Origin: a virus
DNA: 32,374 nt
IMG/VR virus record: IMGVR_UViG_3300025018_000383
Reading direction: 5' to 3' (one strand)
Each line of letters opens with the position of its first letter. The stretch's first letter is position 1. The position numbers and the translations under genes were made by a program. Below, in pieces: positions 1 to 32,374 of the stretch. Below the pieces are notes generated by a model. It did not search any database. It was not told where the DNA came from and saw only the letters and a list, made by a program, of their open reading frames with translations.

Positions 1-127
1 AAGCCCTGTGCGGCGGGCCGTGCTGGCGAACAGCGCATCAGCGGCCAGTCGCACTGCGGCTTCGGCTTCTGGCGCCAGCGCCAGCGCCGGGCCGGCGTTC
101 TCGGCAAACCACGCATCACGGATGGCT
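1..127. repeat. Terminal overlap, copy 1 (identical to 32248-32374)
   Basis: Direct comparison: nt 1-127 (aagccctgtgcggcgggccg...catcacggatggct) equal nt 32248-32374 exactly. The repeat lies inside a coding region. Confidence 0.97.
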
Positions 128-2924: not shown

Positions 2925-5101
2925 TACGTCGCAATCTCCAGGGTCACGGCGGCGATTGTCGCTGGCAACGGCATGCTGCCGCTCAACCGCAGCCTGGCAC
3001 GTTCCGCCCGTCTGCCGCCAGACCAGCCCAAGGTTCGCACCCGCCACTCACCGCTCCAGGGTGTAATCGGGCTGTCGAACTGATCCACATCGGTGCGCGG
3101 AAAGTTCAAATCTTGGCCGTTGACCGCACAGCCCGCGGTATTCCAGAAGCGGATGGTTGCGTTGACAATGCGATGCCGGCGCCCGGCCAGCGGCCGATAA
3201 CCGCCCTGCGCCACCGGCATTAGCAGAATTTCCCATGTCCGGGGAAAGCCTATGTCCAGCGCACTCACTTCCTCAGGCAGGGTGACGGCGCCGGCGACGA
3301 TCGTCGCATTGCCAAGAAATCTGCCGTCACCGACCAGCTGCACTGTTTCGCCATCCAACAGGCTCAAGCCGGCCCAGTTGGCCGTCGGCGCGCCCGCGGT
3401 CTGGCGGATGGCGCCAGACAAGTTCAGGCCCTCCACCTCTTTTTCCAAAAAGATCGTCGGCTGGCCGGCGATGTCACGCTCTGTCAACAGGTACAACGCT
3501 TCGCCGACCACGGCCACGTCCAAAATGGTGCCATCGATGGTCCATTGCGTCCAACCGGCCACTTGTTGACTGCGCTTGGAATTCAGGACGGCCATGGTTC
3601 CATCGCCATTCAAGACGAACAAATGCGTCGCGTTCGCTGCTGCGTCGCCACGGCGCACCGCGATCCGGAACGGCCCCGTGATCAAGCTGCGCGCCAGGAT
3701 CGACAAATCCTGCTGGTCATAGCCGGACAAGGCATCGTTATAGACGACCTCGTTAATGCCAACTGCCGTGCCGCCATCACTGGCCTGGACAAAGGCCATG
3801 GCCCGTTCCAAGGCTACCGGCTGCACGGCCGCGGCGGGCTGGTCGATATCCTTGCGCGGGATGAAGGTGTTCGGCGTGATGCCTGCGCCCGTGCGTTGAA
3901 CGAACACGCCGTTGTCCGTCAGCAAGAACAGTCCGTCGCCGCTGAACAGCGAATGAATGTTCGACACCTCATTGCCACCCAGCTCTGCGGCAACGGCATC
4001 GGTATCTAGCAGGTCAAGCCCTACCTTAAAATCGTAAGGGTCGGCGATGGTAGAGCCGTCAATCCGGTTCGGTCGGTCGCGGTGGCCCGCCAAGTAAAGC
4101 CGGCCCTCGTGCAGTGCGCAGGCAGCTGGATAGCCGCGGCGCGCACTCCAAACAGGTTCTGTCAGACGCCGAAATTCCCAATTCCCGGCCGTGATCGTGT
4201 TGATGTTCTGAAACGGCTCTTGCACCGCGACACGTGCCACGGTGGTGGATACCACCTGCGTGATAATCGCCTCGCCTTGGTTGCCGCGGATGAAGGCGTC
4301 GACATCATCGTCAACGAAATAGGGCGCGCTCAGGGTGACAGTTACGGTTTCGCCCGCGGTTGCGCTGGGCGTCAAGTTCACTGGTGGCCCCAGGTAGCCA
4401 TCCATGCGGAACAGCCATGCACCCGGCACCATCGGGTTGGTATTGGGCCAGTCGCTGGTAACGTCGACGGTCACAACGGTGGGGCTGGTATAGCCAACTA
4501 CGCGGGCTTGCCCGGAATTGCCGTTGACGATGGCGCCCACATCGGCAGCGCGCCAAAAGTCGGCGCTGGCGGTCAGGGTAACGCCGCTGCCCGTAACGGC
4601 GCCAGGCGTCACCGTATAGGCCGGATAGGTTCGGGCAAACAGCACCTTGGGCACGTTGACAAAGGCAGTGACTGTCAGGCTCCAGGCGATATCACTTCCC
4701 TTGCGTTGCAGCGTGTAGGTCGGATAGCTGGCGTGTGTCACGAACATCGTGTCGCGCGACTGGGTCCAGATCAGCGACGGCACGTCAGCCGCAGCCCAGG
4801 GCGAGGCCAGGGTGGCGACCAGGGCATCGTCACGATAAATCTTTAGCGACAAATTCAGCCACACCAGCAGGTATTGCTGGGCGGCGGAAAAGCGAAACCG
4901 GGTGGTGCGCAGCGCGCCCGGAATGGTGGCGATAATTTCAGTGCCATTGGCGGCGCGGGCCATGCCGCGCGGATCCAAGGTGATGTTGCGTAGTACGCGG
5001 GCGCTGGCATAGAACGGCGCCACGTCTTCGCGGCCAGCCGCTTCATGGTCGATCTGGCCGGCTGTGAAGGAAAAATGCTGTTCGAAGCCACGGCGCGCCA
5101 T
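2924..5101 (-). CDS. Tail tubular protein B / nozzle-like protein (725 aa)
   Basis: Long ORF immediately after the 190-aa adaptor-like gene. The size and order match the T7 gp11-gp12 pair. Beta-rich composition. Assignment is by synteny, not by a recognised motif. Confidence 0.6.
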   Translation of the reverse strand: MARRGFEQHFSFTAGQIDHEAAGREDVAPFYASARVLRNITLDPRGMARAANGTEIIATIPGALRTTRFRFSAAQQYLLVWLNLSLKIYRDDALVATLASPWAAADVPSLIWTQSRDTMFVTHASYPTYTLQRKGSDIAWSLTVTAFVNVPKVLFARTYPAYTVTPGAVTGSGVTLTASADFWRAADVGAIVNGNSGQARVVGYTSPTVVTVDVTSDWPNTNPMVPGAWLFRMDGYLGPPVNLTPSATAGETVTVTLSAPYFVDDDVDAFIRGNQGEAIITQVVSTTVARVAVQEPFQNINTITAGNWEFRRLTEPVWSARRGYPAACALHEGRLYLAGHRDRPNRIDGSTIADPYDFKVGLDLLDTDAVAAELGGNEVSNIHSLFSGDGLFLLTDNGVFVQRTGAGITPNTFIPRKDIDQPAAAVQPVALERAMAFVQASDGGTAVGINEVVYNDALSGYDQQDLSILARSLITGPFRIAVRRGDAAANATHLFVLNGDGTMAVLNSKRSQQVAGWTQWTIDGTILDVAVVGEALYLLTERDIAGQPTIFLEKEVEGLNLSGAIRQTAGAPTANWAGLSLLDGETVQLVGDGRFLGNATIVAGAVTLPEEVSALDIGFPRTWEILLMPVAQGGYRPLAGRRHRIVNATIRFWNTAGCAVNGQDLNFPRTDVDQFDSPITPWSGEWRVRTLGWSGGRRAERARLRLSGSMPLPATIAAVTLEIAT

Positions 5102-10024: not shown

Positions 10025-10516
10025 TCAGGTTAGAGCAGGACCATCTGGAACGGTAAACTTTTCAGCGCCGCCATGCGTTAGCACGCCCTGTTTCGTCGTC
10101 ATCAGATGGTCGAATAACTGTTTCGGTGTCGCCCCCCTGAAATCGCGTACACCAGCCAGGCCGGCGATCACGGTGGCGCAAGTGTACTGCTTTCCCAACA
10201 TCGGCACTTGCGGTTCGTTGTCAGGAAGCACCAGCACCACTGCCCCACCGTCCTCAACTGCCCGCATGGCGATGGTGTGCTGCACCAGCTGATCGGCGGC
10301 CGGGTCATCCTCCGGCGCCTCGATCACCCGCAACCCTTGCAACAGCGGATCGACGATGATCCAGCCGGCCAAGCTCCGACGCATTGCCAGACAATGTTGA
10401 AAGCCACGTGGCAGGCCCTGCACAAATCGATAATAGCGTTCGAATTCCGGCGATAGCACCATGCCGATCGGCACGGCGGGCGCGCTCTGAAAGATGATGG
10501 CGTAGGCGTGCGACAT
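10025..10516 (-). CDS. Hypothetical protein (163 aa)
   Basis: ORF tightly packed between terL (stop at 10519) and the next gene. No motif recognised. Confidence 0.6.
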   Translation of the reverse strand: MSHAYAIIFQSAPAVPIGMVLSPEFERYYRFVQGLPRGFQHCLAMRRSLAGWIIVDPLLQGLRVIEAPEDDPAADQLVQHTIAMRAVEDGGAVVLVLPDNEPQVPMLGKQYTCATVIAGLAGVRDFRGATPKQLFDHLMTTKQGVLTHGGAEKFTVPDGPALT

Positions 10517-10518
10517 GA

Positions 10519-11991
10519 TCAGGGGAACACTCCAAAGTTCGAACGGGCCACAACCTGGCGCAGCGCCCGGCGGGCCGCGTGCGGTTCAGCGTCCGGCTCT
10601 GCGCCAATGCCGACCGCACCCATTATGCCATATTCCAATGCCTCGACCACATGGCTGAATTCCGTCTTCAGCACCGGGCCATAATAGTCCGAATTGGGCT
10701 GCAACAGCCGGCGACGATGCTCACCGGCCAGCCCTTGGATCAGCACCTTGCAGGCTGGGTCGATCAACAGGCCGGGTGTGCCAGCCACCGTGCGCCGTTT
10801 CAGCGCCTTGCGGATCGGCGTCTGCCGTAAGTCCGGCGCGTTTGTGGTGCATGGCAGAATTCGCATGCCAGTGACCTTGCGAAGCTCCGTGAGCCACGTC
10901 TGGTCGGCGTTGATGCTAGACCTCGCCCCACCAGCCATATCCGCATAGCCGACCACCTGAAGGCCTTTGAGGCGCGAGGCGCGCAATGCCTGCACCATCT
11001 CGCCAAAGGTGTACACGTCCCAGCCCTCTGCTGGCGGAGCCAGTTCGGCCAGCGCGCGCCACTGACCGTCCGGCATCCATTGGAGGAATACGGCCGCCGC
11101 GTGCAACCCCTGGTCAAAGCCAGCGACCACCTGTGCGTCCGCTGGCGTCAACGGCGCGCCGGCCACGTGCAGGCTATGGGCGAATTCTGGATAGACCGCA
11201 GCGCGGCTGAATTGATTGGACGGCTCACACATCACCAGCCGGCGGTACACGTGATCATCCATCGAGCGCCGCAGGTTTTCGTAATAGCCAGCGGGAAGGT
11301 TCTTCACGTTCTCCGCCGCGGCCAGGTGCCCGCCTGGCTGGCGGAAGACGGCCCAATTCGCCGGGACCTCCAGATACAGGCGCTTGTGCCATTCCGTGCC
11401 CAGCTCTGGGCTGTTGGTGTCGCCCATCAGGATCCGTCGCTTCGGCGCGCCGTGCCCGTCTGCCGTGCGTGGATAGCGACCCAGGCGGCCATAAATGAAG
11501 CTGAACAGCTCCAGCGGCAGCAGGGTTGCCTCCACCAGCAGTGCGTGCGTTGTTTGCAAGCCGCGCATGGTCGCCTCTACCGAGTTTTCGCCGAAAGCCA
11601 AGAACAGCATGGTCAGTTCGATTTGGCCTTTGCCGTCGTCGATCAGGATCGTCTGGGTTCGCACTGGCGCGCCAACATAGCCCATTTCTTTCGGAAAGAA
11701 CGCAAACCAGTCATCCATGAAGGTCCGCTCCAGGTTCGGATAGGTCGATCCAATCACCGCCCACTTGCATCGGCGAACGCCGTCGCGCGGGCTGCGATGT
11801 TCGTTCTGCGCCACCCGGAACACATTGACAATGTTTGCTGTCGTCTTGCCGCTGCCTTGCGGGCCTTCCAGCAGGAACAGGTCTGGGTCGGGCGTACTGC
11901 CACCATCCAGCCCATACACCACCGCCCGGCTATAGGCGTTGGCCACTGGACCAACCGGCGCCAGGCGCAACAGGTCCTGCAGGTCACTCAC
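10519..11991 (-). CDS. terL: Terminase large subunit (490 aa)
   Basis: Walker A LLEGPQGSGKTT near the N-terminus. Size and position upstream of the portal fit. GTG start overlaps the stop of a micro-ORF (GTGA). Confidence 0.85.
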   Translation of the reverse strand: MSDLQDLLRLAPVGPVANAYSRAVVYGLDGGSTPDPDLFLLEGPQGSGKTTANIVNVFRVAQNEHRSPRDGVRRCKWAVIGSTYPNLERTFMDDWFAFFPKEMGYVGAPVRTQTILIDDGKGQIELTMLFLAFGENSVEATMRGLQTTHALLVEATLLPLELFSFIYGRLGRYPRTADGHGAPKRRILMGDTNSPELGTEWHKRLYLEVPANWAVFRQPGGHLAAAENVKNLPAGYYENLRRSMDDHVYRRLVMCEPSNQFSRAAVYPEFAHSLHVAGAPLTPADAQVVAGFDQGLHAAAVFLQWMPDGQWRALAELAPPAEGWDVYTFGEMVQALRASRLKGLQVVGYADMAGGARSSINADQTWLTELRKVTGMRILPCTTNAPDLRQTPIRKALKRRTVAGTPGLLIDPACKVLIQGLAGEHRRRLLQPNSDYYGPVLKTEFSHVVEALEYGIMGAVGIGAEPDAEPHAARRALRQVVARSNFGVFP

Positions 11992-12089
11992 AGCAAGCCC
12001 CCCACACCCCCGGAAAGGGTTTGAAATTGATCTGTGTCAGGCGAGGCCTGAAAGGCCTGAAACAGGGCAGATTTTTGCACGGGGTCCAT
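11988..12089 (-). CDS. Micro-ORF (33 aa, MDPVQKSALFQAFQASPDTDQFQTLSGGVGGLL), translationally coupled to terL
   Basis: Its ATG overlaps the stop of the 55-aa ORF (TGATG) and its TGA overlaps the terL GTG (GTGA). It has no SD of its own and is below the ORF-track size cutoff. Confidence 0.25.
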   Translation of the reverse strand: MDPVQKSALFQAFQASPDTDQFQTLSGGVGGLL

Positions 12090-12256
12090 CAGAGAAAACA
12101 AGGGAACGGTTGGGGGGGGCGGCGGCGGTCGGCGATGGGCTGGCTGACAGGCCGGGTCGGAGACACGGAAATCAGAGGCTGGCCCCTGCGGTTGTCTGAT
12201 TTGCTATCAGCCGTCCGGCCCTGAAATTCAGCAATCCTATCAACGCGTTGTGTCAT
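12089..12256 (-). CDS. Micro-ORF (55 aa, MTQRVDRIAEFQGRTADSKSDNRRGQPLISVSPTRPVSQPIADRRRPPQPFPCFL)
   Basis: Its ATG overlaps the terS stop (ATGA) and is preceded by AGGAGAG at 8 nt spacing. It contains the C8 run (plus-strand G8 at 12112-12119). Hand-translated codon by codon. Confidence 0.35.
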   Translation of the reverse strand: MTQRVDRIAEFQGRTADSKSDNRRGQPLISVSPTRPVSQPIADRRRPPQPFPCFL

Positions 12257-12783
12257 TCTTCCAACTCTCCTGTTTCCAACTCCGCCCGCACCGCTTCGCT
12301 AAGTGATTGATTTTCCACCGATCCTGCCGAGAGGGTCAGTGTCGGCAGGACTGGCTGGTTGGTCATCACGCGGCCAGCATTCGGGTCGCCATCGATCTGC
12401 TCGACCGCCACGATCACATGCGCGTTGCGCGTCTCAACCTGGATTGCCGGCTTGGCCAGCTCATAGGGCAGCAGCGCCTTGAGCGCATCCATCTGGTATT
12501 CCGCCGCGTCGGCCTTGTCCATCCCCAGATGCCCTGCCAAATCGCGTAGCGGCGCGCGGGCAATCTCCATCAGGCGATAGGCCGGAGAAAAGCCCGTCGC
12601 CTCCATGATATCCCGGAAGGTCCGCGACTTGCGGTTCTGCGCGCCGGCCGGCCGGCCACGCCCTCGTGTCGCCGGCCGCGCGTCTCCGAACAAGTCCGGC
12701 GTATCCGGCCACTCATCAGCATGCCCAGCCAGCGCCGCCGCCTCCTCTGCCGCGATCTGCGCGAGCCCGCTCTTTTGCGCCAT
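12253..12783 (-). CDS. terS: Terminase small subunit-like protein (176 aa)
   Basis: Position upstream of terL. Basic RGRGRPAGAQNRKS motif typical of small terminases, with an acidic C-terminal tail. Start taken at ATG 12783 (MAQKSGL); an alternative GTG lies at 12822. Confidence 0.6.
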   Translation of the reverse strand: MAQKSGLAQIAAEEAAALAGHADEWPDTPDLFGDARPATRGRGRPAGAQNRKSRTFRDIMEATGFSPAYRLMEIARAPLRDLAGHLGMDKADAAEYQMDALKALLPYELAKPAIQVETRNAHVIVAVEQIDGDPNAGRVMTNQPVLPTLTLSAGSVENQSLSEAVRAELETGELEE

Positions 12784-12814
12784 TATCCGCCCCCGATAAT
12801 ATGCGCAGCCGCCG

Positions 12815-13067
12815 TGTAACACCCCAACTCGTCACCGTTACACCGACCGTTACGCCCTAATCCACTGATACCATTACTACTATATCCATATGTAACACTG
12901 TAACATATGTAACATGTATATAGTACATGCGCATGCGCGCGCGCGCGCATGTAGGGTGCGCATTCGGCGTTACAGCCGTTACACGCCATCCTCGCCCCCA
13001 AACTCCGAGGAATTTCCGCGCCTAAGCTGTAACGCCAGAGCGTTACAGCCCTGTTACACGGCGTTAC
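12815..13067. repeat. Iteron array: 12 copies of GTTAC(A/G)/TGTAAC in 253 bp, both orientations
   Basis: TGTAAC copies at 12815, 12891, 12899, 12908 and 13028. GTTACA or GTTACG copies at 12837, 12849, 12969, 12978, 13042, 13053 and 13062. Spacing within clusters is 8-12 bp. The region is non-coding, between the helicase stop and the terS start. Confidence 0.85.
12923..12953. repeat. 31-nt perfect alternating purine/pyrimidine tract containing the 20-nt palindrome CATG(CG)6CATG (12932-12951)
   Basis: Read base by base. An AT-rich stretch (catatgtaacatgtatatag) lies on its left. The tract sits at the centre of the iteron array. Confidence 0.9.
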
Positions 13068-13117
13068 ACCTCTGCAATTGCGAACGGGAGAGGAACAAAG
13101 GTACATCATTCCGCGGC

Positions 13118-14926
13118 TCAATAATCTGTTCCGGATTTCGGGGAGCGCGAGGGCAGCGACGACGGTGGTAGCAAGCTGGCCAGGTGAGGCTCGACAGGGA
13201 TGGCAACCCCGCGTGAGACGACGCCCGCGAACCTCACGGCGCCGGAGATGATCGCGCCATCCAGCCGTCGCAGCGACTGGCTCCACGACCCGTCGGTGCC
13301 GCTTGCCGTGCCCCAACGCTGTCCGCGATAGAGCGGGGCCAGGGATGGATTGCGGTTAGCCACGACCAGATGATAAGGCGGCGCGCCAATCTCCAGCCGC
13401 ATCCCGTGACGCTGCAGGACTGTAAGGCCGTGGCTCTCGTCCGGGCGCATGCCGTTGATGAGGACATCTTGCATCGCCTGCTGGATGACCTCCGACACCG
13501 TGCGGCGGCTGCCTTTGGATGGCTCGATCTGGGAGGCCAGGAGGTGGTGCAGGCAGGATACCTCGTCATCCTCCCGATCCGACCTCGCCGCCAGGTCCTC
13601 GGCGCTCAAGAGGTGCAGCCATGGCTCGATCGCCGCATGCGATGGTTGTCCGTCATCAAGCACCACATGCGCGGCCGCCAAAAGCGTGCCGTAAACATCG
13701 GCGCCGCGCGCATCGTGGGCTTGCTCCCGCATCCGGTCCTGATACCAGCTCAACAACTCGGGCCAGCGTCGCCACCCCTGGATCATCCGGCGCCGCATCG
13801 CGGCACCTGTCGCCCGCAAGGCGGGATAATCTAGTGCCAGTGGCGGCTGATCCCCCAGCCGGCCAAGGTCCAGCACCGCCACTCGGCTTTTGTCTTGCGG
13901 CAGCAGCGGTGGGATCAGGATCGACGAAAAGGCAAATGCGCTGCGCAACTCCGTCTGCATCACCCGATGATCCGCCGACGATCGGGCGCTGCCGCCACCG
14001 CTGGCCGCTAGCCGCATCAACGTGATTAGGTCGTTAGTCCTTCTGTTGTCGCCCTCGTTCTCTTTTTCGTCCAATATCACAGGGATTGAGGAGACGGCCA
14101 GCAGCGTCTTGATCGCTGCTGCGGTCACGTCCTCGATATGGATCAGCCCTCGGTCCAACACGGCGATCATCACGTCCAGCAGCGTGGATTTGCCAGAGCC
14201 GGCGCGGCCAGTCACCCAGATGGATGGTCGCCAACGCAACGCCCCTCCGATCATCGCCATGCCAAGCCAGCCGACGACCAGCCGCGCGTCCAGTTCCGGG
14301 CGCTGCCAGGCCCATGTCTGCAACATCCGATGCAGATCGGCAATGCCGTCGTCGCACGCATGATTGCTGGCCTGGGGTCTGGGCTGCGCCGGGCCTGCGC
14401 AGTAGACATGGCGGCCGATTTCGCCGGGCGAGTGCCAGCCAAGGCGCTCGTGCCAGATGCGATTGCCGTAGTGGATGACCAGGGCGCCATCCTCATCCGC
14501 CCAGGCGCCTGGCCCGCGCTCAACGTTGGTGGGATTCCACACTCCCTTTGCGGCGCAGGCTGCCATCAGTGCATCCTGCGCGGCTGTCACGTCGAGGCCT
14601 CCCAATGGCTCGCCGTCTTTGTTGAGCCGGGGCCAATGATCATAGAGCCAATCGATCCGAGTGCCCGCCATATGGACGATCGCGGGGCGTGCAATCTTGC
14701 TGGATTGGATCACGCGCAGCTGACCGATCGCGTCGAGAAACACTGAGCAGTCGCCATAGATGCCTAGCGGCGTGATCGGACAATCGGCCGGCAGCCATTG
14801 ATGCGCGCTGCCGCCGTCCCCCTCGTCAGGCGCTTCCCGATCCACCGGGATTGGGACAGGTTCGGCTCGGTCGATCGCGGCACCGATGGCGGCGGTGGCT
14901 GTCGGTCGGGGAGTGGCGGCGTTCAC
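13118..14926 (-). CDS. Replicative helicase, SF3 / P4-alpha C-terminal type (602 aa), DUF927-like N-terminus
   Basis: Walker A VTGRAGSGKST and Walker B-like PVILDEKE. Located directly downstream of the Toprim primase. GTG start with GAGG upstream. Confidence 0.72.
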   Translation of the reverse strand: MNAATPRPTATAAIGAAIDRAEPVPIPVDREAPDEGDGGSAHQWLPADCPITPLGIYGDCSVFLDAIGQLRVIQSSKIARPAIVHMAGTRIDWLYDHWPRLNKDGEPLGGLDVTAAQDALMAACAAKGVWNPTNVERGPGAWADEDGALVIHYGNRIWHERLGWHSPGEIGRHVYCAGPAQPRPQASNHACDDGIADLHRMLQTWAWQRPELDARLVVGWLGMAMIGGALRWRPSIWVTGRAGSGKSTLLDVMIAVLDRGLIHIEDVTAAAIKTLLAVSSIPVILDEKENEGDNRRTNDLITLMRLAASGGGSARSSADHRVMQTELRSAFAFSSILIPPLLPQDKSRVAVLDLGRLGDQPPLALDYPALRATGAAMRRRMIQGWRRWPELLSWYQDRMREQAHDARGADVYGTLLAAAHVVLDDGQPSHAAIEPWLHLLSAEDLAARSDREDDEVSCLHHLLASQIEPSKGSRRTVSEVIQQAMQDVLINGMRPDESHGLTVLQRHGMRLEIGAPPYHLVVANRNPSLAPLYRGQRWGTASGTDGSWSQSLRRLDGAIISGAVRFAGVVSRGVAIPVEPHLASLLPPSSLPSRSPKSGTDY

Positions 14927-14985
14927 AATCCGCTAGCCTCAGCGGCCACCCGGGTGATTGGTCTGTCGGTTAGGCGGCAGGCCAT

Positions 14986-16092
14986 CTAGGCGGCTCCCCC
15001 GGCGTTAGATGTGGTTGCATCGGGCGCCGCGAACGCTTGCAACCAGGCGTTGAAATCCTTGTAGGCCGGATCCGGCCTTGCAATAGCGACGTCGAGCCCC
15101 TGCCGCACCAGCCGTTGACTGGCGCTGCGCAGCGTCACGCGGGCCGGATGCTCCACCACTTGACCATCCGCGCGAATGATGGTCAGCGGATCATTGTCAG
15201 CGCCGATGATCACGCGACTGATGCCGGCTGGCAGTTGCAGGCGGGCAAGGCCACTGATCGTGCCGACGGCCGCCGCGCGGTGTTGCGGCCGCAGCAGCGC
15301 CATCGATAGCGCGTCCTCGATGCCCTCCGTCAGCAGCAGCGTCTCGCCAAGCGCGGCCTTGGACCAGGGCCGGCCCGTCGAGCCGCGGGACAGTGGGATG
15401 CACAGGCCGGCGGTGGCGCCCAACACCATCTTGGCCCTTTGCAGCCGCGCTTTGTGCCAGCTCGTCCCCTGCCCTGTCAGATAGGTGCGGTGCACCGCAC
15501 GGACGCGCCCGACGACATCGCACATCGCGGCCAGCATGGCCGGCTCCGGTCGTTTGGTCTCGGCGCAGTAAGTGTCCCATGCAAAGCGCAGCACGCTGGG
15601 CGGTCGCGGCAGCGCGCGGATGTCGATGCCGCGGCCCATCAAATACCACTCGGCGGGGCTGCCCGCTAATGGGTCGGCCGCATACCATATGGCGGCAGCC
15701 GTCTTGGCCCGATCTGCCTGCTGCCGATCATACTGGTCGCGGGCAGCTTGATCTTGCTGCTGGATCGCACGGCGGCGTTCGGGCGCCAGTGGTGCATCGT
15801 CTAGGCACAGCCTGCGCTTGGCCCAGCGTACCGCCTCGGCCTTGTTGCCTCCGTACAACGTGGCGGCAACAAGGTCCAGCATGTCGCCAGCCTCGTCGTT
15901 GGCCGCAAAGTTTTTCCACAACCCCTGCTTGCTGCCAGCACCACGATGCACGGACAGGCGGGTGCCGGCCTCACCTGCCAGTGAGCCTGCGGTCCATTCG
16001 TTGCCAGCGCGACAGGCGCCTGGCAACAGCTCTGGCACCAGGCTGTCCACCTGGGCATTCAGGTGCCGCGCGATCTCGGATATATCCATCAT
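14986..16092 (-). CDS. Toprim-domain DNA primase (368 aa)
   Basis: Toprim signature LLTEGIEDALS plus IIGADND. The N-terminal region resembles the P4-type primase N-domain but has no Cys-x2-Cys pairs. Confidence 0.75.
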   Translation of the reverse strand: MMDISEIARHLNAQVDSLVPELLPGACRAGNEWTAGSLAGEAGTRLSVHRGAGSKQGLWKNFAANDEAGDMLDLVAATLYGGNKAEAVRWAKRRLCLDDAPLAPERRRAIQQQDQAARDQYDRQQADRAKTAAAIWYAADPLAGSPAEWYLMGRGIDIRALPRPPSVLRFAWDTYCAETKRPEPAMLAAMCDVVGRVRAVHRTYLTGQGTSWHKARLQRAKMVLGATAGLCIPLSRGSTGRPWSKAALGETLLLTEGIEDALSMALLRPQHRAAAVGTISGLARLQLPAGISRVIIGADNDPLTIIRADGQVVEHPARVTLRSASQRLVRQGLDVAIARPDPAYKDFNAWLQAFAAPDATTSNAGGAA

Positions 16093-16099
16093 GCCGGTC

Positions 16100-16411
16100 T
16101 CATATTGCCAGCGGGCCAGGTGGGTGGGCCTCGTCCAGGCTGCCGCCGCCTAGCAGCGCCCGCCGACAAACGCGAGATTTTGTGGCGTAGCGGGCAGCAA
16201 GCCGCTGCGCCGCGATCGCACTCCGGCGCGCATGCATGCCTTGGGCATAGAGCTGATCGGCCAGCATGAGCCTAAATACTTGGTCCTGCGCCGTTGCAGA
16301 GTGCGTCGCCGCACGTGCCGCGTATACCGTCGCCATCTCGCTCCAAAACTCGGCGTGGTGGGTGATCCGGACTACCTTGGATTGCTGGTCGACCATTGGT
16401 GACGGCTCCAT
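16100..16411 (-). CDS. Hypothetical first gene of the leftward arm (98-103 aa)
   Basis: The ORF abuts the control region. The second ATG at 16396 (MVDQQSK) has GGAG 9 nt upstream and may be the true start. Confidence 0.5.
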   Translation of the reverse strand: MEPSPMVDQQSKVVRITHHAEFWSEMATVYAARAATHSATAQDQVFRLMLADQLYAQGMHARRSAIAAQRLAARYATKSRVCRRALLGGGSLDEAHPPGPLAI

Positions 16412-16604
16412 GCCGCGCTGCCGTAGCGCGCTATCCCTATTGATTGTCTCTGCGATAGGCGACTGTCAATGCACTTGCTGCCTGGCCTGGGGCAGCGTCA
16501 ACTGCGACATTGTGTCAACGGGAAAGAAAAGTGTTGCAAAAGGCAACATCCGATGCGATATTGTGATTGTCAACAACACGGGCCCCGCAAACGGAGACGG
16601 ACCA
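16412..16604. promoter_or_regulatory. Divergent control region with repeated operator-like elements
   Basis: Direct repeat GCGACATTGTGTCAAC (16504-16519) and GCGATATTGTGATTGTCAAC (16555-16574). Palindrome TGTTGC-aaaag-GCAACA (16532-16548). Inverted repeat CTGCC-n8-GGCAG (16478-16495). Four TTGAC(A/G) hexamers on the minus strand. Confidence 0.6.
16534..16562 (+). promoter_or_regulatory. Candidate sigma70-type rightward promoter TTGCAA-N17-GATATT
   Basis: -35 at 16534-16539 and -10 at 16557-16562, with exactly 17 nt between them. The -35 lies inside the TGTTGC/GCAACA palindrome and the -10 lies inside the second direct repeat. Confidence 0.35.
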
Positions 16605-17006
16605 ATGACTAGCACAATCACCTACGCCGACGGTTGGTTGACCGATAAAAACTTTAACCGGGCGAGCGTCGAGTACTTCGGATCACGCGCGAAAGCAGAA
16701 GCGGCTTTGCGGTCATTAAAGGATTGCCGCAATTGCACCAATTGCCGCTATTGTTCGGCCTGTTACCAATGTGTTGGCTGCTTCGGATGCTCCGGATGCA
16801 GCGATTGCAAAGACTGCGCCGGATGCGATTACTGCAACAGGTGCGCTCTCTGTATCCGGTGCATCTTTTGTCTCGGTTGCCGCCGTTGCACAGACTGCAC
16901 CAGGTGCGGCACCTGCAAGAATTGCGACCGCTGCGTTAATTGCCACGATCGCACGCGGTGCGCCGATTGCACCTATCTTTCCCAGCCCAAGGAGCAAGAC
17001 CAATGA
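16605..17006 (+). CDS. Cysteine-triplet-repeat protein (133 aa): a 40-aa N-terminal domain followed by (C-x-x)25 and two more in-phase Cys
   Basis: ATG at 16605 with GGAG 8 nt upstream. I verified the translation codon by codon: DC RNC TNC RYC SAC YQC VGC FGC SGC SDC KDC AGC DYC NRC ALC IRC IFC LGC RRC TDC TRC GTC KNC DRC VNC HDRTRC ADC. The stop overlaps the next ATG (ATGA). Confidence 0.75.
   Translation: MTSTITYADGWLTDKNFNRASVEYFGSRAKAEAALRSLKDCRNCTNCRYCSACYQCVGCFGCSGCSDCKDCAGCDYCNRCALCIRCIFCLGCRRCTDCTRCGTCKNCDRCVNCHDRTRCADCTYLSQPKEQDQ
16725..16970 (+). repeat. Degenerate 9-nt periodic coding repeat (TGY-N6)n
   Basis: Cys codons occur exactly every 9 nt from 16725 to 16943, then at 16959 and 16968 in the same phase. 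This also explains the spurious open frames on both strands here. Confidence 0.9.
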
Positions 17007-23797: not shown

Positions 23798-26455
23798 CTA
23801 GGTTCCGTTGATGACGGTGAAAATCGGTCCGGTGGTGTCGATGCATCGGATCGCGGTGGTCTTGTACTGTGCTGGCGTGGTCGGGGTGCCGCCCTGGAAC
23901 GTGCCCCCCGCGCAGGCGAAGGTGGCAGGGCCAGCGCCGACCTGGGTAACCGTGCGGATATAGCCTACAGCAATGCCGGTGTTCGGCACGTTGACCGTTA
24001 CCGGGCTGGCGTTGTTCGAGATGATCTCGGCATACTGCTGGGTGCCCACCGTGCCCGTGCTGATTGATGTGGTGGTGTCCTCGATGACCGGCAGGTCTGG
24101 CAGGCCCAGGACTTTGCCGGTCCCCTTTGGCGCCAGGATCAAGTCGATATCCGCCGACGCGCCGACCGCGGCAACCGTAACGCCACCACCCACGGCTGGC
24201 GTTGTTCGCAGGTAGTTGGTGGCGCCGGCGACTGTGCGCGCTTCAAAATGGTTTGCGCCATCGCCCCCTTGGACCAGCAAGGCCGATAGGGCCGACGCAC
24301 CCAGAAAGGCGTGGCTTGTTCCGTTGTCCTGCAACCACATTTTTCGGGTGGTGCTGTCGGTCGAATTGATCTTGAACGGGATGCCGGCCGATGTCGCATT
24401 CGATGCGCTGTCGGCGCTAGCTGCCAGTTCATCGATTGCCGCTTTGACCTCGGTTGCGGCCAAGCCGCTAGTAGCGTTGTTGTACGTGATTTGCGGCGCC
24501 GATTGCCCCAATCCGTGCAATGTCACGGCACCGAAGGGCGCGTTCTCGACGATTGCGTTCACATCGTTCCCCGTGAACGTCCACCCGTCTCCTTGGCTGA
24601 CCTTGCTGCCGTCCTGCACCAGTTGCACTGGCCAGTGCATGCCCGTGAAGGACATGTAACGTCCTTCTAGGCTACTATTCCCCTGGACGATTGGGCCGCG
24701 ATCGTAGTTTTGCATCGTGATCGACCCCGGCAAGCTCGCGCCTTCGATATTGCTTTCTCGCGACACGTTAACCACCGTGCCGAAGCGCCCACCGGTTTGC
24801 GTGAAATCGGCATTCTGCCAATGCATGTCGCACTGCGTCAGGTAAATTACCTGTAAGTTTGTCGTAAATTCAGTATTGAACTTGATGCGCCCGGCGCCGG
24901 CGGCTGCCGTAAGTTTTGCAGACCCTCCATCGAAATTCATTACTTTGTTCGTAACATTTGGACCGATATCTATAATCATATCGTCCTCGCCATTTGCCTC
25001 GAGCAAAACCCGCGTACCTTGCACCACCATCACATCATTATTGTGCGCCGCCGCATCGATATGGCACTGGTTGATATGAATTTCTCCATCGCGTTGATCG
25101 TACCAGCGCTTGCCTGGTACGGGCACAAAGTGCAGGTCTTGGAAATGCACTCGCCCACCAGCCGTTTCGAAGCTAGCATTCACCGTCGGCATCGTCGCAT
25201 AAGATGGCCCGCGGATATCCATTTCCCCGGTCGGTAAGATGATGGGACTGGATGTATCAACGAATGGCCCGCCGTCCAGATATACAATCCTGGAATTGGC
25301 AGGATGACTTTCCAGGACCGCTCGCCAAGGGTCGGTTGCTGTAAGCGTGATCGCGCCGGCAGGATTGAAACCATAATGGTTCGGGTTAGGGTTTACCGGG
25401 ACAAACCCTAGCAGATCGGGAATGCCAGTCGCGCCGATGGAGGCTCGATAGGCATACCCATTTGCCCAGACGATCGCGCCGTTTGCCCAGGTCTGGCCGG
25501 CCACGATCGCCGCGACAAACTCCGCCCTGGTCGCAAAACCTACCGGCTTTGCCTGCACCACCACCTCGAATGCGGCGCCCGTGTACGTGAAGATTGCGAG
25601 AGCATCTTTTTGCAGCGCACCCTTTGGCGGGTTCTCCCCGGCCAATTGCACGGACTTTGCTGCCAGGCCACTCACCGCCAGCGTGACCGCGTCGCTGGTA
25701 TTGTCGAACGCCAGCCGTCCGACAAACATGTCACCAGCGACATAGGCCGCGTGGGCCGGCGCCGGCGTGAGTACGATCGCGTTGGCCGTTCCGGTCGCGG
25801 TGCCGCACCAGATCGGGCCGCCGCCACCGCCGCCGCCGCCGGGGATGGTAATCGTCGCCACGCCCGCGCCTGCGTCGGTCGCAGAAACACCCGCCCCAGT
25901 GAAGTTTAGGGTGGTGGCTGTGTTGACGGCAACGCCTTCGTCCTGGGTGGCAATGCCACCGCCACCGCCGCCGCCCACCGATGCCAGCATCACCGGCGCG
26001 CCGGTCTCGTCGAAGCCCAGCGCCTTGTTGGCCCGATCCACCGCCGCGGGCAGCACGCCTGGCTGATAGGCATCGCCTGGCGGGAACGCCAACATCTCAA
26101 GCTGCCGATGGCGCAGCTCTTGTTCGCGTGCCGTGATCCGATCCAGTTCCGTGTTCAGCGTGTTTGCGCCAAAGTCGCCTCCCACCGTGAAATCCGTCGT
26201 GCGAGCCGCCAATACCTCGCGCCGCAGCGTGACGGCCTCGCCGCCGATCATCCCCACGCCGAACGTGACAGTGCCCCCAGCATCGGCGCCGGCGCCCGCG
26301 ACGGTATAACCGCCCACCTGCAGGACGCCATTGACATAGACCATCAGGTCCGGCGCACTGAAGATCGGGAATGTGTAAGGGAATACCGTTTGCGCGGCAC
26401 TGGCGGTATAGTCCACCCGGGGCGACAGGTCGCCGATGATGATATGGGGTGCCAT
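23798..26455 (-). CDS. Tail fibre / tailspike (885 aa) with T7-type N-terminal adaptor domain, poly-Gly-flanked insert and beta-helix (depolymerase-like) region
   Basis: ATG at 26455 (MAPHIIIGDLSPRVDYTASAAQTVFPYTFPIF...) lies 2 nt after the upstream TAG. The listed 1082-aa version overlaps the preceding 843-aa CDS. The N-terminus resembles podovirus fibre N-domains. The middle has repetitive beta-helix-like segments. Confidence 0.75.
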   Translation of the reverse strand: MAPHIIIGDLSPRVDYTASAAQTVFPYTFPIFSAPDLMVYVNGVLQVGGYTVAGAGADAGGTVTFGVGMIGGEAVTLRREVLAARTTDFTVGGDFGANTLNTELDRITAREQELRHRQLEMLAFPPGDAYQPGVLPAAVDRANKALGFDETGAPVMLASVGGGGGGGIATQDEGVAVNTATTLNFTGAGVSATDAGAGVATITIPGGGGGGGGPIWCGTATGTANAIVLTPAPAHAAYVAGDMFVGRLAFDNTSDAVTLAVSGLAAKSVQLAGENPPKGALQKDALAIFTYTGAAFEVVVQAKPVGFATRAEFVAAIVAGQTWANGAIVWANGYAYRASIGATGIPDLLGFVPVNPNPNHYGFNPAGAITLTATDPWRAVLESHPANSRIVYLDGGPFVDTSSPIILPTGEMDIRGPSYATMPTVNASFETAGGRVHFQDLHFVPVPGKRWYDQRDGEIHINQCHIDAAAHNNDVMVVQGTRVLLEANGEDDMIIDIGPNVTNKVMNFDGGSAKLTAAAGAGRIKFNTEFTTNLQVIYLTQCDMHWQNADFTQTGGRFGTVVNVSRESNIEGASLPGSITMQNYDRGPIVQGNSSLEGRYMSFTGMHWPVQLVQDGSKVSQGDGWTFTGNDVNAIVENAPFGAVTLHGLGQSAPQITYNNATSGLAATEVKAAIDELAASADSASNATSAGIPFKINSTDSTTRKMWLQDNGTSHAFLGASALSALLVQGGDGANHFEARTVAGATNYLRTTPAVGGGVTVAAVGASADIDLILAPKGTGKVLGLPDLPVIEDTTTSISTGTVGTQQYAEIISNNASPVTVNVPNTGIAVGYIRTVTQVGAGPATFACAGGTFQGGTPTTPAQYKTTAIRCIDTTGPIFTVINGT

Positions 26456-26457
26456 CG

Positions 26458-28989
26458 CTAACGATCTCCGACAACGGCCAGTGGATTGGGGAATTGGTCC
26501 GGGCCTTCGCCGCGGAACAATTGACGGCGTGGCGACCACCAGTATTGCTGGCCGGTCTGTTTTTTCAGCCGCGCCAACTGCGTGCGGAACCGCTTGTCGG
26601 CCTCGGGGTCGGCCAGGCGCTGCAAGTTGTCCCAGACGACGCGCTCCATCGCCAGGCGCGACCACCACAGATTGGTCGGGTTGTAGCGGCTGAAATAGGC
26701 GACCGTCTCGCGCCCGATGTTGGTGTCCTTGCCCTGCACCGCCTCGATCGCGTTGCCAGCGGTCAGGGCAAGCGTATCCTGGGCCAGGCCAGCCACAGGC
26801 CCGGCGATCGTGGTGCTGAGGCCGCCGCCAAAACGGCTGGTGGCCGCATAGAGAAAATCGCCCAGAATGCCGATCCCGCCACCCTGCAACACGGCGGCGC
26901 CCCAAAACTCCAGCGTGATCATGTCGCGCGGTTGCCGGCCCTTGCTGATCTCCTTCAATTGGATGGCCAGACCACCTAGTAAGGTCATGCCAAAGGCGTA
27001 GGTCGACAGCGCCGCAACGCGGTCCTTCCAGTTGGTTTTTGACCACGCCTGCAAGATTGGGCCGTACATTTGCGACGTCACAAATCCCTTGTACATCGCC
27101 ATACTGCGCGCCACCTCTCCCACCACCGTGCCGGGCTTGGTGCCGCCCGTCAGCAGGGCGCGGCCGCGCACGCTGTGCGACGGCACTGCCAGTTCGGTCT
27201 CGCTTTGCAGCATCTCGCGCATGCGTGTCGCCAGCCGCTCAGCGTTGCCGTCGATGTCGGTTCTTGCTGCGATGTCGCGCGGCCGCAGAAATCGCCCGCC
27301 ATCGGCGTGGTGGATCGGCGTGCGACGGATCACGTCCCAGTCAGCGGCGCCCAGTCCATAACGGGCAAAGGCGTCCTGCATGCCGCCCGGCAGGTCCGCG
27401 AAGCTGTCCTCCGCCACCTCGGCCAGGCGGGCCAGATATTCCATGCCGAACGCCCACTTGTTCGTCTGCGTGAACCTGCTCAATAGCGACAGGCGCATCA
27501 CGCTATCGGCGATGCGGCGCGAGAATTCCGGGCCGGTGATTTCACCCATATAGCGGGCTTGAGCTGCGGCGGTTTCCGTCCAGCTTTCGGCGATCAAGCC
27601 CAGGCTGACCGCCAAGCGTTGGTCGCGCGCGCTGCCTGGCGCCAACAACTTCAGCGCTCGGCCGATCGCACGGCGTTGATTGAGGCCGTTCATGGCCGCA
27701 GCAAATCTGACGCTGTTCAGGTCGCTGACGCTCGACAAGAATGCTGCGCCTAACTGCACCGCCTGGAGGCTGTTGCGTGTCGCTGCCACGGTATTGGCAA
27801 GCGGCCCATTGGCAGCGATGCTGTCCCGCCCCGATTGGATGTCGAACATTCGCCGCGCCGTGTCGATCTGCCCGACAGCCCGATCCGTCGCGGCGCGCGT
27901 ACCGCCGCCAGCCTGGAAGTCGTCCATGGCCGCGCGCTTCCGGATGGACTGCGCCAGATGCTCGAACGTCACTCGCGGGTTCGGGCCGAACAACTCCAGC
28001 ATGGCGATATCCCGCGCCATGCCATGGATATGGCCTGTCATCACGTCGAAAGCAGAGCCGGACCGGCCGAAGGCATCGTGATATTCCTGCCAAGCGTCGG
28101 CGTCTGCGAACTTCAGAAACCGATGATCGCTATGACGCTTGGCCAATTGTGCGCCGGCCTGCCGGCCGCTGGGCGTTACAGTGTTCCAGCCCTCAGTGGC
28201 GATGGTCTGGTAAACGTCACGCAGTGCCTGTTCAATGCCCTCGCGCGTGAAATTTCGGCCGGTGCGGTTATCCCGCATCTGGTGCCAATCCAGACGGGGC
28301 CGTTGCAGCGTTTCAGTCGCCGGCTCCAACAGGAAATCCCGCCATGCCTGGAAGCCGGCCTTGGTGACAGCGACGGCGTCATGATGTTGCGGCAGGCCCC
28401 AATTCGGCAGATGGGCAATGTTGCCTCCGGCCCGGTTGAACCGCTGGCGCAACATTTCTGCCACCTGGTTCCAACTGTCGCCCAACTCACGGGCGTGTGG
28501 GTTGCCGCCGCGCTCACCAAACACGGCGCGCACGACCTCAATCAACTGCGGCTTATTGCGCGTCATCGCGAAGACATTGCGGGAATGGTCGGCCAGTAGA
28601 TCCACCAGCTGTTCGGTCGCCTCGGTCTCGATCGCCCGCTTGCGCATTTCGACATTGCTCGCAGCGTTGCCTTTGGCGGTCCGGTCCAGTATTGCCACCA
28701 GGCCGGCGCCCTCGTTGGGCGCACCGTTCAGCCCGCGGAAGTTCCGGACATCGGCATCGCGGGCGACTAGCGCGTGAACCGCCAGCAGTTTGACGCGGCG
28801 ATCTTCGATCATTTTGGCGCGCATCTGCTTGACGGTCGCAATGGTAGCCTCGGCATCCACCGCGCCGGCCGGATGGGTCGCGCGGAAGTTGCGGGCCATC
28901 TCATCATAGATGGCCATTGCTTCCTCGGCCCTGCCTTTTGGGATTTCCCCGTTATCCAAGGCCGTCTGGATGCAATCCCGCAAGCTCAT
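26458..28989 (-). CDS. Large internal virion / DNA-ejection protein (843 aa) with C-terminal hydrophobic segments
   Basis: ATGA overlap with the upstream gene. The C-terminal region has TM-like stretches (AALSTYAFGMTLLGGLAIQL, FWGAAVLQGGGIGILGDFLYA). It sits in the position of T7 gp16. Confidence 0.6.
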   Translation of the reverse strand: MSLRDCIQTALDNGEIPKGRAEEAMAIYDEMARNFRATHPAGAVDAEATIATVKQMRAKMIEDRRVKLLAVHALVARDADVRNFRGLNGAPNEGAGLVAILDRTAKGNAASNVEMRKRAIETEATEQLVDLLADHSRNVFAMTRNKPQLIEVVRAVFGERGGNPHARELGDSWNQVAEMLRQRFNRAGGNIAHLPNWGLPQHHDAVAVTKAGFQAWRDFLLEPATETLQRPRLDWHQMRDNRTGRNFTREGIEQALRDVYQTIATEGWNTVTPSGRQAGAQLAKRHSDHRFLKFADADAWQEYHDAFGRSGSAFDVMTGHIHGMARDIAMLELFGPNPRVTFEHLAQSIRKRAAMDDFQAGGGTRAATDRAVGQIDTARRMFDIQSGRDSIAANGPLANTVAATRNSLQAVQLGAAFLSSVSDLNSVRFAAAMNGLNQRRAIGRALKLLAPGSARDQRLAVSLGLIAESWTETAAAQARYMGEITGPEFSRRIADSVMRLSLLSRFTQTNKWAFGMEYLARLAEVAEDSFADLPGGMQDAFARYGLGAADWDVIRRTPIHHADGGRFLRPRDIAARTDIDGNAERLATRMREMLQSETELAVPSHSVRGRALLTGGTKPGTVVGEVARSMAMYKGFVTSQMYGPILQAWSKTNWKDRVAALSTYAFGMTLLGGLAIQLKEISKGRQPRDMITLEFWGAAVLQGGGIGILGDFLYAATSRFGGGLSTTIAGPVAGLAQDTLALTAGNAIEAVQGKDTNIGRETVAYFSRYNPTNLWWSRLAMERVVWDNLQRLADPEADKRFRTQLARLKKQTGQQYWWSPRRQLFRGEGPDQFPNPLAVVGDR

Positions 28990-31792: not shown

Positions 31793-32374
31793 TGCGGACC
31801 CACCAATGTGCCATCGGTGCGGATCGCTTTCGCCAGCGCCGGAATATCCACGCCGCGCAGGTCGAGCTCATACACGCCGGCCCGGCCGGCGCCACGCAAC
31901 CACTGCGGCCCCGCTCCGGTTGGGTCGGTGGCGCTGATCCGATAGCGGCCATTCCCGACCGCGACAAAGTACAGGTCGCTGTGTTGGCGCTTGCGAAAAG
32001 CTCCGTCATCCACCCAGCGTGGCGACACGCCGCCCACACCGAACTGGGCGAGGTCCTGATCGCGGATGTTTTCCAGTGCGTACTCCAGATCGGGCTGCGG
32101 TACTTGCGGCGGCACCACCGTCAGTAAGCCGTTCACGTCGGTTGAACCGCCGGTTTTCACGCCGTCGGCCCGCACCAGGCCGCCCATGGCCGCATGAACC
32201 GCCGCAGCATAGGCGCGTTTGGCCGCGCGATCTTGCGCGCCAGCCTGAAGCCCTGTGCGGCGGGCCGTGCTGGCGAACAGCGCATCAGCGGCCAGTCGCA
32301 CTGCGGCTTCGGCTTCTGGCGCCAGCGCCAGCGCCGGGCCGGCGTTCTCGGCAAACCACGCATCACGGATGGCT
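31789..32374 (-). CDS. C-terminal part of the internal virion protein of about 874 aa that starts at 2166 (wraps the junction)
   Basis: The reading frame is continuous with 1..2166 through the 127-nt overlap. The stop at 31789-31791 overlaps the next ATG. Confidence 0.8.
   Translation of the reverse strand, partial: AIRDAWFAENAGPALALAPEAEAAVRLAADALFASTARRTGLQAGAQDRAAKRAYAAAVHAAMGGLVRADGVKTGGSTDVNGLLTVVPPQVPQPDLEYALENIRDQDLAQFGVGGVSPRWVDDGAFRKRQHSDLYFVAVGNGRYRISATDPTGAGPQWLRGAGRAGVYELDLRGVDIPALAKAIRTDGTLVGPQ
32248..32374. repeat. Terminal overlap, copy 2 (identical to 1-127)
   Basis: Same as copy 1. A length of 127 is a typical maximum assembler k-mer, which is consistent with a circular-assembly artefact. 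Confidence 0.97.

Follow-up and report, generated by a model that had tools for sequence, protein, structure and literature searches.

A twelve-iteron array beside an SF3 helicase gene as the probable replication origin of a family of complete alphaproteobacterial temperate phages

The viral DNA of IMG/VR record IMGVR_UViG_3300025018_000383, a stretch of 32,374 nt referred to here as the window, contains a non-coding gap of 334 bp at positions 12784-13117, which is very probably the replication origin (ori) of the phage, built on the pri-rep-ori type known from P4 and from two kinds of satellites, the Staphylococcus aureus pathogenicity islands (SaPIs) and the phage-inducible chromosomal islands (PICIs). 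The gap holds an array of twelve short repeats (iterons) immediately behind the gene for a helicase of superfamily 3 (SF3). It is read as an origin because the array is conserved at this position in related phages while its site sequences change along with the helicase, because the predicted fold of the helicase resembles that of the SaPI5 primase-helicase, and because the arrangement corresponds to the published SaPI/PICI layout. An inspection of the letters alone, called here the sequence-only reading, had already proposed a replication origin, and this part of it is supported by our analysis.

The gap extends from the stop codon of the helicase gene to the ATG at 12783 of a gene for a protein of 176 amino acids (aa), termed here terS-like. 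The features noted in the sequence-only reading are confirmed, with minor corrections. All genes flanking it lie on the minus strand, with primase and helicase upstream and the 176-aa gene, the large terminase gene (terL) and the portal gene downstream (Table 1). Of the 19 copies of the hexamer GTTACR (R, A or G) in the window, 12 are confined to the 254 bp between 12815 and 13068, while dinucleotide shuffles predict 10.9 copies per whole window, or about 0.09 per 254 bp; the clustering is therefore far above chance, as had been claimed. The iteron nearest the helicase gene starts 49 bp past its stop codon, and from there onward, following transcription, the sites are spaced at 10, 11, 13 / 51 / 9 / 60 / 9, 8 / 43 / 12, 21 bp, dividing them into four clusters and into 6+6 about the centre. 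The sorting of copies by strand on the two sides of this centre, as described previously, stands for the inner clusters, which are cleanly inverted, and does not extend to the outer clusters, where orientations are mixed. The centre itself is occupied by a run of perfectly alternating purines and pyrimidines with the 20-nt palindrome reported earlier. It measures exactly 31 nt and is the longest in the window, the runner-up having 14 nt. Next to it, at 12851-12940, lie the lowest-GC 60-bp windows of the whole stretch (GC 0.30 vs about 0.63 overall). This patch, formerly presented as the only AT-rich one, is indeed the most AT-rich, followed by a second at 24811-24990 (GC 0.35-0.40), inside or next to an open reading frame (ORF) of 1082 aa at 23798..27046. 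No RNA family was matched in Rfam within 12500-13400.

Homologues of the helicase, with 30-42% identity, number in the hundreds and are located on viral contigs of 30-45 kb and in bacterial genomes, including those of Rhodospirillales, Sphingomonas, Albimonas, Zavarzinia, Hyphomicrobium, Xanthobacter, Brevundimonas and others, where the relatives are integrated prophages with integrases. We retrieved 229 loci and searched them, without specifying any motif, for 6-mers clustered inside 320 bp (de novo k-mer clustering). Of 230 helicase-bearing loci, 199 contain one short word clustered 7-14 times, mostly right behind the helicase gene, and the same array architecture beside a homologous helicase was recognized in about 165 related loci, mostly of alphaproteobacterial phages and prophages. 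Whereas the sequence-only reading had reckoned with the possibility that related phages lack the array at this position, it is decisively kept there. The clustered words differ among loci, and include CGTTACA, CGTCACA, CGTTGCA, CGTTCCA, GGTTAGG, CGTGAGA, CGTGCCA, CCGCTACAG, GGTGTCTC, CGGGACA, CGTTTCA, CGTAAGA and others, amounting to more than 20 iteron cores in the family with the general form (C/G)G(T/G/C)NNN(A/G).

The layout, on the other hand, is constant over these differing site words. Among 121 non-redundant loci, arrays hold 12 core 5-mers in 44 loci, 11 in 29 and 13 in 19, and the commonest split of the sites about the centre is 6+6 (40 loci). The outer clusters comprise about 3 sites each, at spacings of 11-12 or about 21 bp, and a spacer of 41-45 bp, typically about 43 bp, parts them from the inner clusters; the first such spacer often carries GAAATCAAT. 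The inner clusters have 2-3 sites spaced 8-9 bp and are mutually inverted ('<<<|>>>') around a centre of 55-90 bp, which is rich in GCGCGC/CGCGTG and has a GC content of 0.62. The spacer between the third and the fourth cluster (C-D spacer, 43-65 bp) is AT-rich (GC 0.39) and ATAGATATA-like, and is followed by the second outer cluster. The array region ends with a leader, AATTAAATATTGGGGnTTTATTC-ATG, about 10-40 nt before the next gene (e.g., L171:7185-7212 and L031:7262-7299). Alternation of purines and pyrimidines is also a shared property, as the longest alternating run has a median of 20 nt in the arrays, compared with a median of 8 nt and a 95th percentile of 11 nt for control windows of 260 bp taken from the same loci. 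Since the architecture is kept while the sequence of the sites changes, the reader of the sites must be a co-evolving protein encoded by the phage. Boxes for the host initiator DnaA (TTATCCACA, with at most 1 mismatch) are not enriched, with 0.11 per kb in array regions vs 0.09 per kb elsewhere, and GANTC sites are depleted in the arrays, so involvement of host DnaA or CcrM is not indicated.

Position fails to decide whether this reader is the helicase or the 176-aa protein. The array is neighboured by both genes in 90 loci, by the 176-aa-family gene alone in 47, by the helicase gene alone in 21 and by neither in 7; it adjoins the helicase gene in 111 of 167 loci, while in the rest 0.4-4 kb are inserted or the array is located upstream of the module. 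Comparison of sequences does decide between them. For this purpose, protein identities were compared with iterons among 115 non-redundant loci, and iterons with the same core and a different flank were regarded as ambiguous. When helicases were at least 55% and terS-like proteins less than 40% identical, 20 pairs had the same iteron, 11 were ambiguous and 4 had different iterons, 3 of these 4 differing by one base. When, conversely, helicases were less than 45% and terS-like proteins at least 55% identical (55-65%), only 1 pair had the same iteron and 14 had different ones. Likewise, helicases of at least 55% identity combined with primases below 42% gave 11 same, 7 ambiguous and 0 different, and helicases below 42% combined with TerL of at least 55% gave 6 same and 20 different. 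Expressed as the area under the receiver operating characteristic curve (AUC), with which protein identity separates same-iteron from different-iteron pairs, the helicase reached 0.64-0.93 within fixed bands of terS-like identity, and the terS-like protein 0.53-0.59 within fixed helicase bands. Sliding windows over the four proteins performed best at helicase residues 541-580 (AUC 0.76), and the helix-rich, putatively DNA-binding part of the 176-aa protein gave a background AUC of 0.59-0.62. By these comparisons, iteron identity follows the helicase, with which it is co-inherited, and not the terS-like protein, the primase or TerL.

The helicase gene is directly preceded by the primase gene in the window, and a primase homologue is present in 185 related loci. 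The AlphaFold model of the helicase has a mean confidence (pLDDT) of 88.9, and its top match in a Foldseek search of the PDB is the SaPI5 primase-helicase (7ola, E 2e-8), with further matches to NrS-1 and to the helicase parts of poxvirus D5/E5 and of the African swine fever virus PrimPol. PHROG 35358 aligns the protein with the C-terminal part of fused primase-helicases. On the strength of the model, the helicase is assigned to the SF3 D5/P4-alpha group. Its C-terminal region is modelled as a succession of helix-strand-helix-helix-strand-strand at residues 454-523 and of a helix and a hairpin at 547-577, so that residues 454-581 appear winged-helix-like. A homologue from a Ferrovibrio terrae metagenome-assembled genome (MAG) (P0014 in L083, 729 aa) carries an extra FtsK_gamma (PF09397) winged-helix DNA-binding domain.

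Arrays were also found outside the usual phage setting. In a Micavibrio MAG, an island between host genes (L004:1704-6623, the same as L147) consists of a P4-type integrase, an ORF of 293 aa, an array at 4425-4701 and the helicase. The array, which precedes the helicase gene itself, holds TGGGACA 10 times, a GAAATC-containing spacer, an alternating tract of 38 nt and an AT-rich, TAGATA-containing spacer. Homologues of the primase, of the 176-aa family and of terL were not found in this island, which could represent a satellite-like element using the same replicon. In four further loci (L028, L036, L097, L127), the genes that follow the array are unrelated ones. A more distant case is the cultured Pararheinheimera phage vB_PsoM_KLER1-1 (OM654378), whose fused primase-helicase gp84 is 28% identical to the helicase. 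Directly 3' of gp84 (L274:5207-5600), TGCTAA and CTTACA repeats, unannotated so far, form a dyad about a (TA)n-rich centre, and probably constitute the same kind of origin. In a genome of low GC, a (TA)n centre is both AT-rich and alternating, which suggests that the alternation of purines and pyrimidines may be the conserved property.

Two entries labelled 'human fecal' Bacteriophage sp., MT835534 (L273) and MT835930 (L275), have 64-66% GC and contain the helicase and an array, with AGAACC repeated 10-13 times or GTAAC 12 times, and alternating runs of 19 and 15 nt. They look like members of the alphaproteobacterial phage family rather than gut phages.

According to the model that we propose, the early operon on the minus strand would produce a Toprim primase and an SF3 helicase doubling as the initiator. 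The helicase would recognize a 7-8-bp iteron, YGTTACA, most likely via the winged-helix-like C-terminal region (about residues 454-581). The inverted inner clusters, with spacings of 8-9 bp, flank the 31-nt tract, and the outer clusters, with spacings of 10-13 or 21 bp, are located about 43-51 bp further out, so that six sites per side could position two helicase hexamers face to face. The duplex would then open in the AT-rich patch at 12855-12930, by way of a structural change in the deformable alternating tract, or both, after which the primase would prime and a host polymerase would copy the 32.2-kb circular genome. In this model we infer the iteron-reading domain, the double-hexamer stoichiometry, and the site as well as the mode of melting. 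The features concerned are collected in Table 1.

Table 1. Features of the proposed origin and of the adjoining genes, listed in the direction of transcription (positions in the window)
Feature	Position	Strand	Details
DNA primase gene (pri), first large gene of the replication operon	14986..16092	-	Pfam DUF7146 (7.6e-23), Toprim_3 (5.5e-9); PHROG 510 DNA primase (4.5e-35)
SF3 helicase (D5/P4-alpha/SaPI Rep type), 602 aa, proposed initiator	13118..14926	-	P-loop residues 236-257; PHROG 35358/21086
Outer iteron cluster A, 4 sites	13028..13068		GTTACA on + strand at 13063-68, 13053-58, 13042-47; on - strand at 13028-33; spacing 10, 11, 13 bp
A-B spacer	12984..13027		Holds GGAAATTCC in the window; in relatives about 43 bp with the conserved GAAATCAAT(G) motif
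Inner iteron cluster B, 2 sites	12969..12983	+	Sites 12969-74, 12978-83; spacing 9 bp; inverted relative to cluster C
Central alternating purine/pyrimidine tract, exactly 31 nt	12923..12953		Contains the perfect 20-nt palindrome CATG(CG)6CATG at 12932-12951
Inner iteron cluster C, 3 sites	12891..12913	-	Sites 12908-13, 12899-904, 12891-96; spacing 9, 8 bp; inside the AT-rich patch
AT-rich patch, candidate unwinding element	12855..12930		GC about 0.30; equivalent of the C-D spacer of relatives
Outer iteron cluster D, 3 sites	12815..12854		+ strand 12849-54 GTTACG, 12837-42 GTTACA; - strand 12815-20; spacing 12, 21 bp
Leader with Shine-Dalgarno sequence before the 176-aa gene	12784..12814	-	..CATATTATCGGGGGCGGATA-ATG in the window; AATTAAATATTGGGGnTTTATTC-ATG in relatives
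176-aa terS-like protein	12253..12783	-	AT-hook-like RGRGRPAGAQNRK motif, four helices, acidic tail

Several observations weigh against an origin read by the helicase. The positional link of the array to the start of the terS-like gene is at least as tight as that to the helicase: in 147 of 177 loci, a median of 44 bp separates the end of the array from the terS-like gene, and the array stays beside this gene when 1-4 kb are inserted after the helicase (L093, L160, L075, L141), and is located together with it upstream of the primase in L082, L062, L068 and L176. No locus was found with the terS-like gene and without the helicase, as every locus with enough upstream sequence has both, and since the two families always co-occur in phage loci, they are inseparable there. 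Mutual information between single protein residues and iteron bases is dominated by noise and phylogeny, giving no clean specificity residues, and in close pairs with different iterons, the changes concentrate weakly in two parts of the helicase, 31-90 (N-terminal) and 541-600 (C-terminal). The profile of the C-terminal domain matches no solved winged-helix domain in the PDB. In addition, a central AT-rich region is typical of SaPI and PICI origins, while here the centre is GC-rich and alternating, and the AT-rich DNA is found inside the arms. The switch of the cumulative GC skew that was looked for at the gap, following the earlier suggestion, was not seen, as the skew tracks gene orientation; this result is uninformative, the genome being so small that its skew follows transcription. 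Finally, iteron binding by the helicase, melting and replication activity are all inferred.

The 176-aa protein is the other candidate for the reader of the sites. Its family has 183 members in the loci, with a near-invariant RGxGRPxGARNRRT motif followed by four helices, a beta hairpin and an acidic tail. The sequence-only reading named the gene terS, an identity that is not demonstrated: the protein has no Pfam or NCBIfam match, the main PHROG of the family is one of unknown function, and 1 of 60 members matches PHROG 641, terminase small subunit. The sole match of the family profile in the PDB is the AT-hook of HMG-I/Y (E 0.29), the AlphaFold2 model has a pLDDT of 57 and finds no match with Foldseek, and tblastn against phages returned nothing. 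Identity of the protein as a small terminase is thus unproven. Judged by its motifs, its DNA-binding features would suit a target that is itself conserved, for instance the leader or the AT-rich spacer, better than the variable iterons. The protein may be a TerS with a pac site adjoining the origin, or an accessory factor of the origin.

A variant that assigns the two proteins to one structure starts from the GC-rich alternating centre. According to it, the working heart of the origin would be this centre and not the AT-rich element, acting as a switch between two opposed SF3 hexamers by a supercoil-driven B-to-Z transition, a cruciform or untwisting at pyrimidine-purine steps, and the same complex would be used by the neighbouring AT-hook protein to start packaging, making origin and pac one composite element. 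We consider this combination unlikely.

Somewhat less probable in our view is a packaging initiation site (pac or cos), in which the following gene's product, a small terminase, would bind the repeats, and cleavage would take place at the palindrome. Known models for such sites are P1 pac, where hexamers flank the cut site, SPP1 pacL/pacC/pacR, and lambda cosB-cosN, located upstream of Nu1. The attachment of the array to the terS-like gene described above, despite insertions and even upstream of the primase in L082, speaks for such a site, as does the location of the 176-aa gene just upstream of terL in the window, and the AT-hook-like motif, the helical core resembling DNA-binding ones and the single PHROG 641 match of the protein point in the same direction. 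The circular assembly is compatible with headful packaging. However, the unproven TerS identity aside, terS-like proteins of 55-65% identity go with unrelated iterons in nearly every pair, TerL is not followed either, and terS-like proteins less than 40% identical share iterons when their helicases are similar. The variation of the iterons contrasts with the conserved DNA-binding part of this protein (GRPxGARNRRT being near-invariant). Moreover, an island devoid of the terS-like gene and terL has both the helicase and the full array, and in the four loci mentioned the array stands before unrelated genes. As the identity of the sites follows neither the terS-like protein nor TerL, packaging, which the sequence-only reading offered as an alternative together with a late promoter, has no support as the explanation for the iterons.

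The late promoter is more improbable still. In that case, the array would be an operator/promoter of the late (structural) operon, through which an early protein, the helicase or another regulator, would time transcription of the terS-like gene, terL and portal. In favour of this, the array in every case opens a block of co-directional genes, with the conserved leader behind it. Where one small gene more has been inserted (L050, L063, L116), array and leader keep this leading place, and a -10-like element could be accommodated in the AT-rich C-D spacer (ATAGATATA). Furthermore, initiators that bind iterons commonly double as transcriptional regulators, as in iteron plasmids. On the other hand, a consensus scan of 12500-13400 found no sigma-70-type promoter or terminator, and twelve sites, arranged as a dyad of two sixes around a non-coding centre, are far beyond the needs of an operator and match the stoichiometry of a helicase. 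In the Micavibrio island the array precedes the helicase gene, and co-inheritance with the helicase holds even when the primase, the early protein included in the comparison, differs. A pac site, a terminal repeat or a late-promoter operator may nevertheless be an additional function of the same region. A centromere-like partition site, for which the short phased direct and inverted repeats of type Ib/II plasmid centromeres are a precedent, or a chance or recombinational cluster of repeats with no dedicated function is hardly credible, as no ParA/ParB/ParR-type gene is located beside the array in the window or the examined loci, the relatives are integrated prophages with integrases, and the enrichment of GTTACR together with an architecture kept in about 165 loci with different repeats excludes chance.

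Two additional motifs were observed at the borders of the arrays. The AATTAAATATTGGGGnTTTATTC-ATG leader is kept at the DNA level across phages whose proteins are merely 25-30% identical, and stays with the array when a small gene is inserted (L050); a translation signal, a promoter element and a protein site are candidates for its role. At the opposite border, a CCCCGACCC motif was found near the helicase stop codon, within the last approximately 90 nt before the array, in 32 of 120 loci (e.g., L005, L037, L088) vs 4 expected, and may be either a coding end or a DNA signal.

In regard to the genome that carries the gap, the first 127 nt of the window (1-127) are identical to its last 127 nt (32248-32374), indicating a circular assembly and a complete genome of 32,247 bp. 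It encodes a tyrosine integrase, a helix-turn-helix repressor-like protein, a T7-type scaffold and portal and a large terminase, in addition to the DUF7146 and Toprim_3 primase and the 602-aa P-loop protein. As a complete circle with TerL, a T7-type portal and scaffold and an integrase, the element is a phage and not a PICI, satellites being defined by the lack of a full virion gene set and by dependence on a helper. A nucleotide search of 10500-16500 against GenBank phages gave no match. The second-longest alternating run of the window, 14 nt at 16226-16239, is found where the replication operon and the early genes of the plus strand diverge, in a region (16100-16411) in which the ORFs 16100..16411(-) and 16266..17006(+) overlap. 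Between the 176-aa gene and terL, a stretch of 262 bp (11992-12252) has no ORF of at least 60 aa on the coding strand and contains the C-rich run ccgccgccgcccccccca.

On this reading, the P4/SaPI/PICI replication strategy extends to a large family, not described before, of complete temperate phages and prophages in Alphaproteobacteria, which bears on the question of where satellite replicons originate; the Micavibrio island may be one such satellite. The origin of these phages and prophages can thereby be annotated. No description of this variant was found in the literature searched. Furthermore, more than 20 iteron cores in one fixed architecture, together with more than 100 cognate helicases, represent a natural series of specificity swaps, from which a protein-DNA recognition code and the geometry of two-hexamer loading could be derived. 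The Z-DNA-prone tract in place of the usual AT-rich centre is likewise testable.

Among known systems, P1 pac, SPP1 pac and lambda cosB show a similar outline, with clusters of short repeats on both sides of a centre, beside the small-terminase gene, read by TerS, and with bend-prone spacers between inverted sites. The array described here differs from them in that the identity of its repeats does not follow the terS-like protein and in that it also occurs without packaging genes. In the origins of SV40 and papillomaviruses, the SF3 helicases LTag and E1 assemble as a double hexamer on inverted sites of 5-6 bp, four pentanucleotides, with a palindrome that is easily deformed and an AT tract at their flanks, and the origin-binding domain of both proteins is N-terminal to the helicase. 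This is a likeness of mechanism only, with no homology claimed beyond the SF3 core, and in contrast to the four pentanucleotides of these eukaryotic viruses, twelve hexa- or heptamers are present here. The likeness to P4 lies in the combination of primase and SF3 helicase activities with short repeated origin sites that are read by the replication protein, as predicted for the phage in question. P4 unites primase, helicase and DNA-binding domain in one polypeptide and has its repeats split between ori and the distant crr, while here pri and rep are separate genes and the array is a single compact dyad.

The closest correspondence is with SaPIs and PICIs. In SaPIs, the primase gene is located upstream of rep and the origin immediately downstream of it; Rep is both initiator and helicase, and its C-terminal winged-helix domain recognizes penta- or hexanucleotide iterons, of which the origin holds 6-12. 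These are divided equally between the two sides of a central AT-rich region, those of one side pointing opposite to those of the other, and two hexamers are proposed to self-load there, one per side (PMC9371898). PICIs of Gram-negative bacteria (e.g., EcCICFT073) have the same layout, pri-rep-ori has been shown to be functional in them, and a terS homologue is sometimes next; P4 alpha and its cognate ori are cited in the same work (PMC6092414). Our phage likewise has a primase, a predicted helicase-initiator and then the array, immediately 3' of the helicase gene, followed by a block of packaging-type genes, and its 12 sites, split 6+6 with inverted inner clusters, are within the 6-12 opposed iterons of the published origins. 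As in these islands, the iteron sequence differs from element to element and pairs with its own Rep, here as judged by co-inheritance. Unlike in the islands, the replicon is part of complete alphaproteobacterial temperate phages with a T7-type portal and scaffold, TerL and integrase, and not of a satellite, the number of sites is almost constant (12), the sites form four clusters in which two distinct spacings are used, and the helicase shares with the SaPI Reps the fold and no detectable sequence similarity beyond it (about 10% identity). The proposed origin thus belongs to a known class, the iteron origins used by self-loading SF3 initiator-helicases, and what is new is its presence in complete phages, its fixed four-cluster layout and its GC-rich, Z-DNA-prone centre.

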